Origin: an uncultured delta proteobacterium
Lineage (GTDB): Bacteria; Desulfobacterota; BSN033; UBA1163
Length of the DNA: 64,000 nt
Assembly: GCA_963708295.1 (NCBI GenBank)
Contig: CAVPSJ010000017.1
Span: 160,001-224,000, forward strand
Direction: 5' to 3'
The number at the start of each line of letters is the position of its first letter. Within the stretch, counting starts at the first letter, position 1. The notes under the pieces were generated by a model that searched no databases, had not been told where the DNA came from, and saw nothing but the letters and a program-made list of their open reading frames with translations. The position numbers and the translations under genes were made by a program. Shown in pieces: positions 6,804-21,225 of the stretch.

Positions 6804-7961
6804 TCATTTTTTCGGAGATTCTTTAATAGTTAATAATTCTTGGGCTACCATCCACCTCTCCGTCTGGTCGGCCTCTTCAAAAACCTGGGTGACCTTGGCA
6901 TCCCGCATCATGCGTTCCACAGGATAGTCCTTCATATATCCATAACCCCCGAGGATCTGGACGGCATCGGTGGTCACTTTCATGGCGGCTTGGGAGGCAA
7001 AGCATTTTGAGATGGCGGAGAGTTTCCCGACATCTTTATGTTTTTCATCGATCCGGGAAGCTGCCTTATAGACCAGGGAGCGAGCGGCTTCTACCTGGGT
7101 AGCCATGTCTGCGATCATGAATTGAATCGCTTGAAATGAGGAAATGGGCTTTCCGAACTGGATCCTTTCGTTGGCGTAGCGAATGGCGAAATCGAGAGCT
7201 CCCTGAGCGATCCCGACCGCCTGAGCCCCGATGGCCGGTCTCGACCGGCAGAGGGTTTTCGTCGCGATCTCCCAGCCCTCTCCTTCCTCTCCGAGGCGAT
7301 TCTCTTGAGATACCCGGCAATTTTCAAAGACCACATCCGTCGCCACGGAACCCCTCATCCCGATCGTTTCGTCCCTCTCCCCGAAAAGAAGGCCCTCCGT
7401 TCCATCGGGCACGAGAAAAGCAGAAATTCCTTCCAATCCACGCTCCGGCTGGGTCAACGCAAAGACAGAATACCATTTGGCAAGGCTCCCATGCGTGATG
7501 GAGCATTTGCGCCCGGTGATCAGATAATCCTTTCCGATCTTCTCAGCTGTTGTTTTGACGGAGGGGACCTGCAATTCTTCCTCCGATTCGTTTAGCGCAA
7601 AGGCGACGAGGCTGTTTTTCTCGGAAATCTCTGTGAAGCAGAGATCTTGTTGCGAAGGATTCCCGCCTAATAATACAGGAAGCGTGCCGAGCCCGTGAGC
7701 CAGGAGGATGAGAGAGGAGGAGCCGCAAACCTTTGCAATTTCCTCAATGACGATACAAAGGGAGGTCAGGTCTCCATCGGTTCCCCCATAGGATTCAGGG
7801 AGAAGAAGGGAAAGATATCCCTGTTTGCCAAAGGCCTCTACCAAATCGCATGGAAATTCTCCGGTGGCGTCAATCTTCGCCGCCCGGGGTTGGACCATCT
7901 TGAGGGCCGTCTTTTCCGCAGCGGCCCTGATCATTTGTCTTTCTTTTTCTACGTCTTTCAT
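6804..7961 (-). CDS. Acyl-CoA dehydrogenase family protein (some motifs degenerate)
   Basis: ERIQFGKPI, FQAIQFMIADM, AVQILGGYGYMKDYPVERMMRDAK. Confidence 0.92.
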   Translation of the reverse strand: MKDVEKERQMIRAAAEKTALKMVQPRAAKIDATGEFPCDLVEAFGKQGYLSLLLPESYGGTDGDLTSLCIVIEEIAKVCGSSSLILLAHGLGTLPVLLGGNPSQQDLCFTEISEKNSLVAFALNESEEELQVPSVKTTAEKIGKDYLITGRKCSITHGSLAKWYSVFALTQPERGLEGISAFLVPDGTEGLLFGERDETIGMRGSVATDVVFENCRVSQENRLGEEGEGWEIATKTLCRSRPAIGAQAVGIAQGALDFAIRYANERIQFGKPISSFQAIQFMIADMATQVEAARSLVYKAASRIDEKHKDVGKLSAISKCFASQAAMKVTTDAVQILGGYGYMKDYPVERMMRDAKVTQVFEEADQTERWMVAQELLTIKESPKK

Positions 7962-8009
7962 TTTGCTATTTCTTCGGAGAATGGGGGGGTGGATGTTGTA
8001 TAAAGTGTT

Positions 8010-8038
8010 ACGTTAATAGAGTCAATGTTCTTTGTCAA
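8010..8038 (-). promoter_or_regulatory. Sigma70-like promoter for the acyl-CoA dehydrogenase gene
   Basis: Minus strand TTGACA-17 nt-TAACGT. Confidence 0.45.
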
Positions 8039-8051
8039 GCGCAAAGTAAAG

Positions 8052-8495
8052 CTTGCCCTCCCCAGTTTCTAACTCTCTCCGCGAAGGGCCTGGGAAAGCC
8101 CCTCTTCAAGGCTTCATCAGGCCAGACTTGAGATGGATCACGGTGCCATCCCTCGCCAGGACACGAACTCCTGTCTCTCATGGAAATGAATCTGCCCAAC
8201 CGATCAGCGGTATTGGCCAATGAAGCCTTTCCGAAGGGTTCACCCAGGCCGGATTTTTTCAGCACCCTGAGTAGCCCCGGACACAGGCAGGTAGGTTGGA
8301 AAAATTTTAGAGCGGATACCTCTTGGTGCCGAATGAAACTCACCAGTTTCCAACCCCTATCTCAGGTTTGATCCTAATGCTCAGGAGGTAGCCCATGCCA
8401 TGATGACCGCATTCTAAAGTTTTTGAGAGTTGCCTGCCTGCGTCGTTCCCCCTTTTTCATCCCTTGATGATTCAAGAAACTGGGGGTGGGCAAGG
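8052..8495 (+). other. Highly structured non-coding element with terminal inverted repeats and flanking direct repeat (candidate large ncRNA and/or MITE)
   Basis: 8052-8070 pairs with 8475-8494; AAAGTAAAG at 8043-8051 and 8496-8504; many internal stems (see findings). Confidence 0.6.
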
Positions 8496-8530
8496 AAAGT
8501 AAAGGGCAACAAAAATAGCAATAAAAATAG

Positions 8531-8558
8531 TTGACTTTGCCTCGTAAAATAATATAAT
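8531..8558 (+). promoter_or_regulatory. Sigma70-like promoter of the rpsU operon
   Basis: TTGACT-16 nt-TATAAT with an A-rich upstream tract. Confidence 0.65.
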
Positions 8559-8598
8559 TATTAGTTCAAAATGAGTTATGGAAGGAGGGGAAAAATGG

Positions 8599-8802
8599 AT
8601 GCCAGGGATTAGGATTAAGGAAAACGAATCTTTTGAAAATGCACTTAGGCGATTTAAAAAACAGGTAGAAAAAACGGGGATATTGTCCGAGATTCGAAAA
8701 AGGGAACATTATGAGAAGCCCAGTATAAAACGGAAGAAGAAGGCGTTGGCCGCCAAGAAAAGGGCGATGAAGAGAATGAGAAAAATGGTAGATCGGGGAT
8801 AA
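8599..8802 (+). CDS. rpsU: 30S ribosomal protein S21
   Basis: [23 protein letters not shown]; Shine-Dalgarno AAGGAGG upstream. Confidence 0.97.
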
Positions 8803-9251: not shown

Positions 9252-9294
9252 ATTCCTCCTCGTGAGTGGTCATCCCAATTCCTTTCTCGGTTTT

Positions 9295-11649
9295 ATGAAT
9301 GATCGTTCTCTCAAGCTTCTAGAGTATCATTACCTCTTAAACATCCTGAAAGAGTATTGCACTTCCCCCCTCGGTCGGAAGCGCTGTGAAGCCTTAAGAC
9401 CTTCCCAAGACCTTCCATCGATCCAAACGCGATTGACTGAAGTGATGGAACTTAAGAAAATCCTTGAAACGAAGGGAGAGATCCCTCTCGGCGGGCTGAA
9501 AGATATTGAGGGGTTGTTCAGTAAACTGGAAATCGAAGGATCGGTGCTCGAAGTCCAGGAATTATTGGAGGTCTACCATCAAATCATATTGTGTAAAGAG
9601 CTCAAGCGATTCTTCCAAAAATTGGACGATGTCAAAGTTCCTCATCTTCAGGAGAAGATCTCCAGGCTTTCGTACCAAAAGCCATTGGAGAAGATGATCC
9701 TTCAGACGATCAGCACAAAAGGCGAGATTCTCGACCGAGCCAGCGCGGGCCTTTTAGATATCCGCCAACGGCTGGGAGAGGTCAGAGAAAAGGTGAAGGG
9801 GGTGCTCGAATCCCTTCTCCGTCGAGGGGATCTGCAGTCCATCTTTCAGGAGCAGCTCATTACGTTAAGAAGTGGACGATATGTTGTTCTGATCAAATCC
9901 GATTCGGAAAGACGGCTTGAAGGGATCATCCACGATCATTCCCAGAGCCGGATGACCTACTTCTTTGAGCCCCTTCAGGTCGTTTCCATCAATAACGAGA
10001 TCAATGTCCTCATCGGAGAAGAGAAGGAGGAAGAGTACCGAATTCTGGCAGGCCTGACCGATCAGGTCCGGGAAGAAAGGCAGACCCTCCGGAACGACTT
10101 TGAATTATTGGGAGAGTTGGATCTCCTCTTAGCGATGGCACGGCTCTCCTCCCGTTTGAAGGGGATTTACCCGCTTTTGAATGAGGAGGGCAGAATTGAG
10201 ATGAAGGACGCTCGAAATCCTCTCCTCGCCCTTCAACGTGAAGATCGGGTGGTTCCGGTCACCTTGCGGATGGGAGGTGGGAAGAAAGTCCTGATCATCA
10301 GCGGAGCGAATGCGGGTGGGAAGACCGTTGCCTTGAAGACATTGGGGCTTCTGACGTTAATGGTTCAATCCGGTCTTCCGATCCCCGTGGCAGAGGGAAG
10401 CCACGTTGGAATCTTCCGAGACATTTTTGCGGTGATCGGCGATGAACAGAATATCGAAGAGAATCTGAGCACGTTTTCCAGCCACCTCCTCCATGTGAAC
10501 CAAATCTTAGAGAATGCAGGACCCCATTCCCTTATTCTTTTGGATGAACTCGGGGTGGGAACTCACGCCCAAGAGGGGTGCGCCCTGGCCATGGGCTTTT
10601 TGGATCGATTCCGGGAAAGTGGAGCTTCCGCCGTGATCACCACTCACTTCGATCGTCTCAAGGCCTACGGATACCTCCATCCGGACGTAGAGAATGTGGC
10701 CGTTGAATTTGACGAAAAGACGATGGAGCCCAGATATAGGCTGTCCTACGGGTCGTCGGGGTTGAGCAATGCCTTTCTGATCGCTGAGAAGTTAGGAATT
10801 TCAGAGAAGGTCCTGGAGGCAGCCCGTCTTCATCGGGACGGAAGCGGTGAGGAGATTGCGCATGTCTTGTCGGCTTTGGAGAGGCTAAAGAGGGAGGCCG
10901 AGAAAGAAAAGCGCCAAGCCTCGGAGATGAGGGAGGAGGCCAGGCTCGAACATGAAAGATTAAAGAAAATACTGGAGGCGATCAAGGACAGGAGGCTGAA
11001 AATCTACGCCCAGGCTGAGGAGAGGGCGAGAAAGGCCGTCCAGAAAGTTGAAGAGGCGCTGAAGGAATGGGCCGTTCATAGAAAAGAGGAGAAAATCCCG
11101 CTCTCACTCCAACGCAAAGAAATTCAGGATATCCGAGAGAGGTTTCTTCCCTCCCTTAGAAAGAAGGGACGTCCTGCAATACCGGGTGGCTTGAGGGTGG
11201 GGGAACGTGTTAGAATTGAAAGCCTTCGAAGCACCGGGATTCTAACGGAAGTAAAAGAGCCGCTCAATCGCGTGGAAGTGCTGACGGATAAGGCCAAAGT
11301 AAAAGCTCCCCTCTCTGAAATCGTCCAGGCACTACCGGATGAAGACGATGAAGAGAAAAAGAGGATCCCCGAAGGTCCAGCTCTTTTAAAAGGGGCCGTC
11401 GATGGGCCTTCCTCCCAATTAAATGTCATCGGGTTGACGGTAGAAGATGCCCTTCCAAAAGTTGATAAATTTATCGATCAAGCCCTCCTCCATGGGCTGG
11501 AGAGGGTCCAGATTATCCATGGGGTAGGTTCCGGCAGGTTGCGGGATGCCATCGGTCGATACTTGAGTGGACATCGGGCTGTAAAAAGTTTATCTTCCGG
11601 GGAAGCGATGAAGGGTGGCCGTGGCTTGACCATCGTCGAGTTGAAGTAA
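9295..11649 (+). CDS. mutS2: Endonuclease MutS2
   Basis: P-loop SGANAGGKT, IGDEQNIEENLSTFSSH, LLDELG, C-terminal Smr domain IIHGVGSGRL. Confidence 0.95.
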   Translation: MNDRSLKLLEYHYLLNILKEYCTSPLGRKRCEALRPSQDLPSIQTRLTEVMELKKILETKGEIPLGGLKDIEGLFSKLEIEGSVLEVQELLEVYHQIILCKELKRFFQKLDDVKVPHLQEKISRLSYQKPLEKMILQTISTKGEILDRASAGLLDIRQRLGEVREKVKGVLESLLRRGDLQSIFQEQLITLRSGRYVVLIKSDSERRLEGIIHDHSQSRMTYFFEPLQVVSINNEINVLIGEEKEEEYRILAGLTDQVREERQTLRNDFELLGELDLLLAMARLSSRLKGIYPLLNEEGRIEMKDARNPLLALQREDRVVPVTLRMGGGKKVLIISGANAGGKTVALKTLGLLTLMVQSGLPIPVAEGSHVGIFRDIFAVIGDEQNIEENLSTFSSHLLHVNQILENAGPHSLILLDELGVGTHAQEGCALAMGFLDRFRESGASAVITTHFDRLKAYGYLHPDVENVAVEFDEKTMEPRYRLSYGSSGLSNAFLIAEKLGISEKVLEAARLHRDGSGEEIAHVLSALERLKREAEKEKRQASEMREEARLEHERLKKILEAIKDRRLKIYAQAEERARKAVQKVEEALKEWAVHRKEEKIPLSLQRKEIQDIRERFLPSLRKKGRPAIPGGLRVGERVRIESLRSTGILTEVKEPLNRVEVLTDKAKVKAPLSEIVQALPDEDDEEKKRIPEGPALLKGAVDGPSSQLNVIGLTVEDALPKVDKFIDQALLHGLERVQIIHGVGSGRLRDAIGRYLSGHRAVKSLSSGEAMKGGRGLTIVELK

Positions 11650-11965
11650 AACCCGGTGGGTCGGGCAGGGGTTCGATCTCTTCCTTCAGAAAAAGCTGAA
11701 GCGATGGATGATACCATCCCCGCCATGAGACTGTGTGGTGATCATGATGAAGGAAGGATTTGGCCGGGACAGGCAGTCAGGCTCCTCAGCTTTGGGACGC
11801 GGTCATTTAGTAGAGTTATGGGTCATCGAGATCATTCCAAATCTAATCTTTTCAGTGACTTGCGGCCAGGTAGCTGACCGTTAAAAGGTTTCCGCCTAAA
11901 GATTTGTCACCTGACCGCCTATCCCTTCTTGCAACAGAAGTGGTTTTTCGTTAATTTATGATGCA

Positions 11966-11990
11966 GCCTCCATTGACTGGGGGCTTTCTT
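11966..11990 (+). terminator. Hairpin plus T-tract just upstream of dnaG (possible attenuating terminator)
   Basis: AGCCTCCA-ttgac-TGGGGGCT-TTCTT. Confidence 0.4.
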
Positions 11991-16861: not shown

Positions 16862-17355
16862 GGGGAGTTGACGGGGAACAGATGGTCGCTCCTTCTGAGG
16901 GCCCGTAAAGCCGGGCAGTCGGGAGGAGAGGAAAGTCCGAGCTCCGCAGGGCAGGGTGGTCCGTAACGCGGACTGTCCCGGAATCCTGAAACGTAGGGTT
17001 TCGAGATAAGGAAAGTGCCACAGAAAACATACCGCCCAGTGGAATGGCGTGTGCGCCTGCCCACAGGGTAAGGGTGAAAAGGTGAGGTAAGAGCTCACCA
17101 GTGCCCTGAGCGATTGGGGCAGCTAGGTAAACCCCACCCGGAGCAAGACCAAATAGGTTCCGCTCTCCGCTCAGGCGGAGTGAGAAAAGCCCATTCAAGT
17201 TTGTCTCGAGGCCATGCATCGGGGCAAGGGCGGGACGGGTGAGGTCGCTTGAGGTCCTGAGCAATCAGGACCCTAGATAAATGGCCATCCCCCGGTTCCC
17301 GCTGAAAGCGGGATCGGGATGACAGAACTCGGCTTATGGTCCCTTTCAACTCCCT
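16862..17355 (+). ncRNA. rnpB: RNase P RNA (type A)
   Basis: GAGGAAAGTCCGAGCT, GAAAGTGCCACAGAAA, GGTAAACCCC..GGAGCAAG, ACAGAACTCGGCTTA; P1 GGGAGTTGA/TCAACTCCC. Confidence 0.95.
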
Positions 17356-20439: not shown

Positions 20440-20901
20440 ATGGGCGAAAAGGTGATTTGCCAGAACAGAAAGGCGTTTCATAACTACTCCATTGAGGAGA
20501 CTTACCAGGCCGGGGTTATCCTTCTTGGGTCGGAGGTTAAATCCTTGCGCGAGGGAAAGGTGAGCCTCGGGGACAGTTACGGTGATATCAAAAGGAGCGA
20601 GGTCTTTCTGGTTGACGCTCATATCAGCCCTTATCCCCAGGCAAACAGACTGAATCACGAGCCGTTGAGGACGAGGAAACTCCTCCTTCACAAAAAGGAG
20701 ATCAAACGCCTCATCGGCAAGGTGGAACAGAGGGGCTATACGCTGATTCCGATCAAGCTCTACTTCGTCGATGGAAAGGTCAAGGTGGATCTCGCTCTCG
20801 CAAAGGGGAAAAAACTTTTTGATAAGAGGGAGACGCTCAAGAAGAAAACCATGGAACGTGAGATGGAAAGGGGGCGAAAAGGGTTCGACGGGGATCGTTG
20901 A
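20440..20901 (+). CDS. smpB: SsrA-binding protein
   Basis: NRKAFHNY, GSEVKSLR, RKLLLHKKEI, LAKGKKLFDKRE. Confidence 0.98.
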   Translation: MGEKVICQNRKAFHNYSIEETYQAGVILLGSEVKSLREGKVSLGDSYGDIKRSEVFLVDAHISPYPQANRLNHEPLRTRKLLLHKKEIKRLIGKVEQRGYTLIPIKLYFVDGKVKVDLALAKGKKLFDKRETLKKKTMEREMERGRKGFDGDR

Positions 20902-21225
20902 CGTCAGGGCTGCATACCGAGGTCCCATTGGCTCGTTAAACAAATGGGATTAAACATAATCGCAAACAACTACGATTATGCCCTGGCTGCCTAAGCGCAG
21001 CTAGGCGTCCTCCCTGTCCTTGCCTGTAGGGCAGGATCAGGATGTCAGAAAAACAGGATAGTCCCTCTCCGAATCCTATAGAAGAGGGGCGAAACCTAAT
21101 AGGATAGTCTCTCGGGAATCCTGCCTGTGGGAGCCCTGAAGGACGAACTCAAAATACAGGCTATGTATGTAGATGTTCTGTCGGAAGGTTCTCGGACGCG
21201 GGTTCGATTCCCGCCGCCTCCACCA
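20870..21225 (+). ncRNA. ssrA: tmRNA, tag (A)ANNYDYALAA
   Basis: 5' GGGGGCG..GGTTCGAC; tag frame GCA AAC AAC TAC GAT TAT GCC CTG GCT GCC TAA; 3' GGTTCGATTCCCGCCGCCTCCACCA. Confidence 0.97.

Follow-up and report, generated by a model that had tools for sequence, protein, structure and literature searches.

The Correia, ERIC, RUP, and Nezha repeats are all bacterial MITEs. ISs of the IS4 family, such as IS10, IS50, IS231, and IS186, have a symmetric target consensus. Other mobile elements settle at landmarks: IS1397 and ISKpn1 insert in REP loops, group IIC introns insert behind terminators, and Ty3/Ty1 target Pol III genes. Insertion of IS110/IS1111 elements is guided by bridge or seek RNAs (PMC11208160, PMC11187229), and MITEAba12 is described as a bacterial MITE with 9-bp duplications (PMC6382973). 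Within the text available from the literature that we searched, we found no IS or MITE of bacteria reported to keep a fixed spacing upstream of −35 boxes when it inserts; a term search of the available text of two papers from 2024, a MITE review and a survey, returned neither −35-directed insertion nor any mention of the lineage studied here.

Here, we describe an element of 444 bp at positions 8052 to 8495 of a 64,000-nt stretch of DNA (the window). Like bacterial MITEs, it is small and noncoding, with inverted repeats, a target duplication, and many intergenic copies; its ends are common to an IS that supplies a transposase, and the entire element folds into long hairpins. Unlike bacterial MITEs, its family sits at a fixed distance from −35 hexamers, its copies are highly diverged within each genome (BLAST finds one where profiles find dozens), and its modular cargo is found in another MITE frame as well. 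Very probably, the window element is a nonautonomous MITE that is mobilized in trans by an IS with the same ends, lands upstream of −35 boxes, and carries two structured modules, here called D1 and D2, as cargo.

Results

A structured, noncoding element upstream of rpsU

The stretch from 8043 to 8504 lies between an acyl-CoA dehydrogenase-like gene (6804 to 7961, minus strand) and rpsU (8578 to 8802, plus strand). A preliminary description, made from the sequence, had listed inverted ends, a flanking duplication, and internal stems here, and a repeat search recovered the repeats that it named. The direct repeat AAAGTAAAG is identical at 9/9 positions between 8043 to 8051 and 8496 to 8504, giving the left and right copies of a 9-bp target-site duplication. 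The inverted ends pair 8052 to 8063 with 8483 to 8494 (12 nt, 92%) and 8060 to 8070 with 8475 to 8485 (11 nt, 100%), and two long inverted repeats occupy the interior (8087 to 8117 with 8220 to 8250, 31 nt, 77%; 8280 to 8311 with 8413 to 8444, 32 nt, 75%), along with a short inverted pair at 8294 to 8302 and 8347 to 8355 (9 nt, 100%).

Between the duplications, the element holds no coding gene. Its left terminal inverted repeat (8052 to 8070, plus strand) fits the family consensus CTTGCCCNCCCCCAGTTTTTCC and pairs with the right one (8475 to 8495, minus strand) through 8475 to 8494; the G at 8495 either closes the element or opens a 10-bp duplication that contains one mismatch. Module D1 (8087 to 8250, plus strand) forms a hairpin of roughly 164 nt whose basal stem is conserved, as supported by the repeat search, nhmmer, and compensatory changes. 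Module D2 is a hairpin of about 165 nt (8279 to 8445, plus strand) whose stem of about 34 bp joins 8280 to 8311 with 8413 to 8444, as recovered by a covariance model, nhmmer, and covariation.

The element is as highly structured as had been claimed. Its plus strand folds at −176.6 kcal/mol against −142.7 ± 5.6 in 100 shuffles (z −6.02), with 0 of the 100 as good, and the minus strand reaches a z of −4.10. The helix between 8280 to 8294 and 8430 to 8444, previously read as crossing and as a pseudoknot or an alternative fold, is not a pseudoknot but the base of the conserved D2 hairpin; it is present in the minimum-energy fold and supported by covariation. Two competing stems, CCTGAGTA/TGCTCAGG and AACTCTC/GAGAGTT, are missing from the consensus fold of 7 sequences.

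We likewise found no known RNA family and no credible ORF in the element, in agreement with the preliminary description. At the gathering score, Rfam placed no family inside it, its window matches being RNase P, tmRNA, and one tRNA, all elsewhere; in E-value mode it gave 3 chance-level matches of 15 to 18 bits. The internal ORFs (102, 63, and 56 aa) matched no Pfam family at an E value of ≤1, and their frames are not conserved, with single-base indels between homologues. The RNase P RNA of the window (16869 to 17352, 263.6 bits), in which several long insertions interrupt the match to its model, and the tmRNA (20870 to 21225, 228 bits) are both ordinary.

The element is an insertion

To examine the origin of the element, we compared the rpsU region across 14 genomes of the same genus, plus the closest species found (L055). 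The same divergent spacer is short and element-free in five relatives (G011, G007, G008, G009, and L055). Each of these empty sites reads TGTCAAG..AAAGT.. once, with a single copy related to the left duplication, followed by the conserved rpsU promoter. Since five empty orthologous sites hold a single target copy, the window element is an insertion, and a search for such sites, which the preliminary description had proposed, thus bears out its suggestion of a mobile unit.

Other genomes of the genus carry different sequences in this spacer. Read by eye, the G006 spacer holds an element that has ends of this kind and a different interior, those of G004 and G010 contain a remnant of about 150 nt with a recognizable right end, and those of G005 and G012 contain another decayed element. 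The spot upstream of rpsU has been hit repeatedly in the genus (L044, L046, L048, L050, and L051) and is a recurrent landing site.

A family with shared ends and copy-specific duplications

BLAST with the element matched 18 of 61 genomes, all of them in an uncultured family of Syntrophaceae-like bacteria (f1). Full or half-length relatives were confined to G008 (several), G011, and G015, with short matches elsewhere. In the window's own genome (G000), BLAST returned one full copy only, a number that is misleading given the profile counts reported below.

We inspected further copies with their flanks and read the duplications by eye. They are copy specific, lie just outside the inverted ends, and measure 9 to 10 bp: two are 10/10 (ACTTTCCGAA; GTCACTTCCA), one is 9/10, and three are 8/9, with weaker cases of 7/10 and 6/8, while five copies have no clear flanking duplication. 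The imperfect duplications include ACTAAATGGG/ACTAAGTGGG, TCAAATGAG/TCAAATTAG, and TTTTTATTC/TTTTTATTG. In G008 and G015, which belong to different genera, one insertion beside a tRNA gene occupies the orthologous position.

The family's ends are about 20 bp long and start with CT. Matches to the end motif outnumber those to a reversed control in many f1 genomes, for instance, 25 to 5 in G000, 25 to 4 in G003, 25 to 2 in G025, and 13 to 1 in G028. A scan of metagenome contigs for exact ends gave 88 stretches, from which 80 loci with 82 ends were analyzed. A partner end was present for 44 of the 82, and in 41 rows the resulting element measures 92 to 568 bp, with clusters at about 250 to 300 and 430 to 470 bp; the other three measure 1721, 1731, and 3605 bp. 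Among the 44 partnered ends, 29 have duplications, mostly of 9 bp, with an identity of 80% or more, and at least 11 have a perfect one (9/9), counts in which at least four locus pairs look like one site sampled twice because they have the same duplication. The 3605-bp pair (L302) has neither duplication nor hexamer and probably represents two elements, and a 3.7-kb pair on contig C13 encloses ordinary genes and was set aside as a chance pair. Local alignment as a means of finding partner ends was unproductive.

The window element is therefore shorter than the 600 bp or so expected of a MITE and lacks a coding gene, it has terminal inverted repeats and empty orthologous sites, and it belongs to a family with multiple copies, copy-specific duplications, and ends in common with a transposase-encoding element. 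By these defining features, the window element is a MITE.

A partner IS with the same ends

Two elements on metagenome contigs, L274 (89 to 1819, 1731 bp) and L300 (1721 bp), have the same ends as the MITEs and encode a transposase. Together with the empty orthologous sites and the copy-specific duplications, this autonomous partner lends the mobile-unit reading strong support. Each carries two ORFs, at 226 to 618 (DUF6788) and 360 to 1790 (transposase) in L274 and at 295 to 705 and 276 to 1865 in L300. The small ORF encodes 130 to 136 aa and matches DUF6788 (PF20586) at 1.1e-22 in L274, the copy scanned. In both elements, it and the transposase ORF overlap and are read in different frames; a programmed frameshift fusing the two is possible from this arrangement.

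The transposases (476 and 529 aa) match DDE_Tnp_1 (PF01609) at 53 to 57 bits, above the cutoff of 23. Their best NCBIfam match is the IS4 family (NF033591), at 110 to 114 bits, below its cutoff of 152, so we file them as divergent IS4 relatives and not as members. As in the IS4 family, the partner IS has DDE_Tnp_1, the motif IYRSRMRIEQGFRDWK (Y-2-R-3-E-6-K, YREK; seen in the translation), 9- to 10-bp duplications, and ends that start with CT. Unlike that family, it falls below the NCBIfam cutoff and has the extra upstream overlapping DUF6788 ORF. L274, the one autonomous copy with both flanks, shows no duplication (6/10). D1 and D2 are not in the partner IS, which has just the ends in common with the MITEs.

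The partner IS is likely to be the mobilizer of the MITE family. We found no transposase of the L274/L300 type in G000 or in 14 congeners, in MAGs of a sort that often lose such repeats, and the window element is probably stranded in this genome. Across f1, 7 of 55 genomes have relatives of the transposase at 24 to 52% identity, mostly as fragments interrupted by contig ends or stops. The predicted structure of the DUF6788 protein (mean pLDDT 73.6) had no Foldseek match in the PDB at an E value of ≤0.001, the best being 0.048 with a TM score of 0.24, and thus gives no clue to how a target might be read. The term DUF6788 is absent from the literature searched.

Insertions lie a fixed distance from −35 hexamers

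The window element is located between divergent promoters of the acyl-CoA dehydrogenase gene and rpsU. The leftward promoter has a TTGACA hexamer at 8033 to 8038 (minus strand; TGTCAA on the plus strand) with TAACGT 17 nt downstream, and 13 nt (8039 to 8051) separate the hexamer from the element's left end. The rpsU promoter (8531 to 8558, plus strand; TTGACT, 16 nt, TATAAT; 11/12 matches) is outside the element and is conserved in element-free relatives. The TTGACA of the leftward promoter is kept in 5/5 empty sites, which indicates that the hexamer belongs to the target and did not arrive with the insertion.

The same geometry recurs throughout the family. TTGAC is found 12 to 14 nt outside one end in 37 of the 44 partnered metagenome rows, corresponding to 35 of 42 elements. 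In a histogram of offsets for 110 ends, 13 nt occurs in 32 and 14 nt in 9, with every other offset from 0 to 39 represented at most twice. Both autonomous copies have the hexamer as well, at 12 to 13 nt, and 13 of 16 insertions in relatives, read by eye, show the same arrangement. In G000, 12 of 25 ends have TTGAC at 10 to 15 nt (mode 13), compared with 0 of 5 control ends. The promoter may face either end of the element, as seen among the metagenome elements.

We next looked for −10 boxes. A TAnnnT follows 25 of the 41 hexamers at offsets 13 to 14 with a spacer of 16 to 18 nt, mostly 17. As background in G000, 16.2% of intergenic TTGAC and 3.1% of coding TTGAC have TAnnnT at this spacing, and the enrichment has a binomial p of 1e-10 against a background drawn from this one genome. 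Among the G000 ends, 7 of the 12 hexamers have TAnnnT at 16 to 18 nt, as opposed to 7.7% of all TTGAC[ACT] in the genome. Judged from these sequences, insertion sites are nonrandom, with an element end 12 to 14 nt (mode 13) upstream of an outward-pointing TTGAC(A), and the hexamers beside the ends appear to be mostly real sigma-70 −35 boxes.

Selection after insertion contributes by shaping which insertions survive. Because the element sits just beyond the upstream limit of a promoter, both the core promoter and the genes stay intact. The enrichment of complete promoters may in part be selection, because insertions beside TTGAC within genes are lost, or it may reflect recognition of real promoters. 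The sharp peak at 13 nt is beyond what selection alone can produce.

D1 and D2 are conserved modules

To examine the interior of the element, we iterated nhmmer searches in G000 and counted nonoverlapping matches. D1 occurs in 28 copies and D2 in 63, of which 31 are full length, and on a crude ORF map 25 of the 28 and 57 of the 63 are intergenic. The window D2 scores 89.6 bits on the plus strand and 22.3 on the minus strand with covariance model R1. We aligned 36 D2 cores: the window copy, 5 from relatives, 2 partial copies, and all but two of the 30 other full-length copies in G000 (28 copies); those two contain small palindrome insertions. Across the 34-pair stem, 87.0% of cells are paired, compared with 79.8% in shuffles, and 22 pairs have changed on both sides, compared with 12.3. 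None of 500 shuffles reaches either observed value, and slid controls pair at 29 to 49%. By comparison with these shuffles, the D2 stem covaries.

A covariance model built from this alignment matched 52 of 54 f1 genomes, representing all 21 genera, and 0 of 46 genomes outside f1. Matches often number at least 29 per f1 genome, with more than 1000 across the family. The best copies from 29 other genomes pair at 93.4% (88.0% in shuffles) with 17 two-sided pairs (7.1 in shuffles), values that again none of 500 shuffles reaches, in an alignment that was fitted to the model and so leans toward the structure.

Pairing in D2 is also strand specific. Cells of the G-U type number 88 and those of the A-C type 30; in helix 1 of the 29-genome set there are about 80 G-U cells against 9 nonpairs, and one G-U is kept in 26 of 31 copies. 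Pairing selected on one strand implies that D2 most likely matters as a single-stranded fold, whether RNA or ssDNA. The D1 basal stem has 20 consensus pairs, 8 of them with compensatory change, and shows no G-U bias (about 11 versus 13 by count).

D2 also occurs in a second mobile frame. In G069, it lies in a unit that spans about 265 bp, is bounded by inverted ends of 16 bp, and makes a duplication of 3 bp, as seen in 9 near-identical copies of 10 (L213 to L222; the one at a contig end was left out), with duplications of 3/3 in 5 copies, 2/3 in 1, and unclear in 3. These copies represent a recent burst and are always central in small CCCTCCCC..GGGGAGGG palindromes whose arms are site specific. 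A filled/empty pair for this frame within G000 was not a clean insertion, and the boundaries were taken from the G069 burst. A second D2 copy in the window (11765 to 11926, minus strand; 136.8 bits with R1, 28 on the opposite strand) is of this frame type, with outer arms at about 11715 to 11975, just downstream of mutS2 (9262 to 11649).

Several further features of the modules were observed. Two different D2 copies of G000 are interrupted at the same conserved motif by an IS110-family element of 1605 bp (G000:C4:169661-171265 and G000:C4:318882-320486 [L135]; 99.75% identical) that encodes a 356-aa DEDD transposase matching PF02371 and PF01548. Its position at one motif in two copies indicates that a site-specific IS uses D2 for homing, much as REP sequences are used elsewhere. 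The D1 position of two-module elements gives a weak match of 45 to 52 bits to the D2 model on the opposite strand (L299, 8970 to 9135, minus strand; L268, 528 to 689, plus strand). By this resemblance, D1 and D2 may have arisen long ago as inverted paralogues, in which case the element as a whole may be a large palindrome that has diverged. In some copies, D1 or D2 is interrupted by an inserted small GC-rich palindrome of about 35 nt (GCCTGCCTGCGCG..GGCGAAGGCAGG type) (L036 [G008:C56], L154, L169, and L007), and many copies are flanked by other small palindromes, making the repeats mosaics.

Alternative explanations for the element

The preliminary description had also entertained a large noncoding RNA. 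In that reading, the locus is primarily a gene for one or two structured RNAs, D1 and D2, with a host function, and mobility is a mere vehicle. Covariation of the D2 stem in both the 36-copy and 29-genome sets, the G-U strand bias, the near-universal presence of D2 in f1 and its absence outside, and the insertion orthologous between two genera all favor it. So does a 286-nt contig from a metatranscriptome (depth 3.8), which covers 7915 to 8128 across the left junction; this RNA evidence consists of contigs without strand, for which DNA carry-over is possible. The same run contains a 114-nt contig from a related copy, with contig depths of 2.6 to 3.8, and leaves 8132 to 8185 and 8294 to 8563 uncovered, gaps that carry no weight because only contigs were available. 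However, we found no conserved promoter or terminator inside the element, D1 lacks the G-U bias, and either end may face the promoter. D2 has no uniform orientation relative to its neighboring genes: between co-directional genes it is antisense in 30 cases and sense in 15, a twofold excess, and it lies between divergent genes in 12 and convergent genes in 6. Moreover, the arms of inverted repeats can covary without RNA through coevolution with a binding protein, and templated correction of quasi-palindromes can have the same effect. What stands of the large-RNA claim is a structured, conserved interior; a transcribed functional RNA does not follow from these data, and we regard a host RNA gene as the primary identity of the locus as a minority reading, about one chance in four.

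Somewhat less likely still is a stronger version of the MITE reading, in which a promoter-homing IS/MITE reads functional sigma-70 promoters and D1 and D2 are selected RNA modules with a role of their own. Here, the machinery, perhaps the DUF6788 protein, would possibly sense promoter-bound RNA polymerase and not bare TTGAC, integration would occur one fixed step upstream of the −35 box, and the role of D1 and D2 might be, for example, to insulate the adjoining promoter.

We consider it very doubtful that D1 and D2 are REPIN-like or IS200/IS605-like hairpins moved as ssDNA by an HUH (Y1) transposase. Like REPINs, they are hairpin repeats confined to one lineage, their arms are conserved, and they persist at orthologous sites; the hairpins are long and number tens of copies per genome, a G-T-tolerant strand bias would fit ssDNA as well, and G000 has 9 Y1_Tnp matches. 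However, 8 Y1_Tnp genes were examined: each is bounded by short inverted ends unlike those of the window family, and none was matched by position to a D1 or D2 copy. To our knowledge, HUH elements make no target duplications, whereas the window family has 9-bp duplications and DDE-type partners and the other D2 frame has 3-bp duplications. Unlike REPINs with their RAYT, then, the window family has duplications, a DDE-type partner, and no associated RAYT; the Y1_Tnp genes belong to separate small ISs, and we rejected a RAYT/REPIN assignment. Seven of the G000 Y1_Tnp genes encode 314 to 336 aa with an N-terminal domain, and several are bracketed by their own short inverted repeats (C4:1008237-1009235, C20:73743-74741, C14:290260-291267, C12:89045-90052, C6:70371-71336, C16:103276-104241, and C5:149287-150228).

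Finally, the empty sites refute two further readings, which deserve almost no credence: that the element is a decayed protein gene, or that it serves rpsU or the acyl-CoA dehydrogenase gene as a cis-regulatory leader or operator. Although the spacer holds promoters and adjoins a ribosomal protein gene, both promoters point outward from the element, which is upstream of each, five relatives conserve these promoters in spacers without it, and its ORFs show neither a Pfam match nor frame conservation.

Discussion

Taken together, our analyses partly support the preliminary description of this locus. It had been put forward as an undescribed system; MITEs are known and ordinary, and it is the −35-spaced target choice and the cargo that are unusual.

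For the window MITE, we propose the following mechanism. The element is defined by its inverted ends of about 20 bp, common to a 1.7-kb IS that encodes a DUF6788 protein and a divergent IS4-type DDE transposase. Going by family type, the transposase, supplied in trans, would bind these ends, and target cuts staggered by 9 (sometimes 10) bp would produce the flanking duplication. An element end would be placed 12 to 14 nt upstream of a TTGAC(A) pointing away, with the target presumably read by the transposase or the DUF6788 protein. D1 and D2 are cargo, repeated across f1 and also traveling in the second kind of MITE, with D2 probably acting single-stranded.

This target, a TTGAC hexamer at 13 nt, differs from the symmetric target consensus of the IS4 family. 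Like IS1397, IS110, group IIC introns, and Ty3/Ty1, which find a safe haven, the window family uses a harmless, recurrent landmark at a fixed distance. Unlike those elements, its landmark is the upstream edge of sigma-70 promoters.

For annotation, the large structured spacer beside rpsU is explained without invoking a regulator. The cargo is of separate interest, as a 160-nt fold with strand-specific pairing that occurs in two MITE types and serves as an IS110-family homing site. If the insertion specificity is intrinsic, it would represent a natural safe-site strategy, a way into promoter recognition by a transposase or its DUF6788 partner, and possibly a tool to place DNA beside promoters. 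Should both promoter homing and a mobile structured RNA prove true, the family would offer bacteria's equivalent of the promoter targeting seen with Ty3, here coupled to that RNA.
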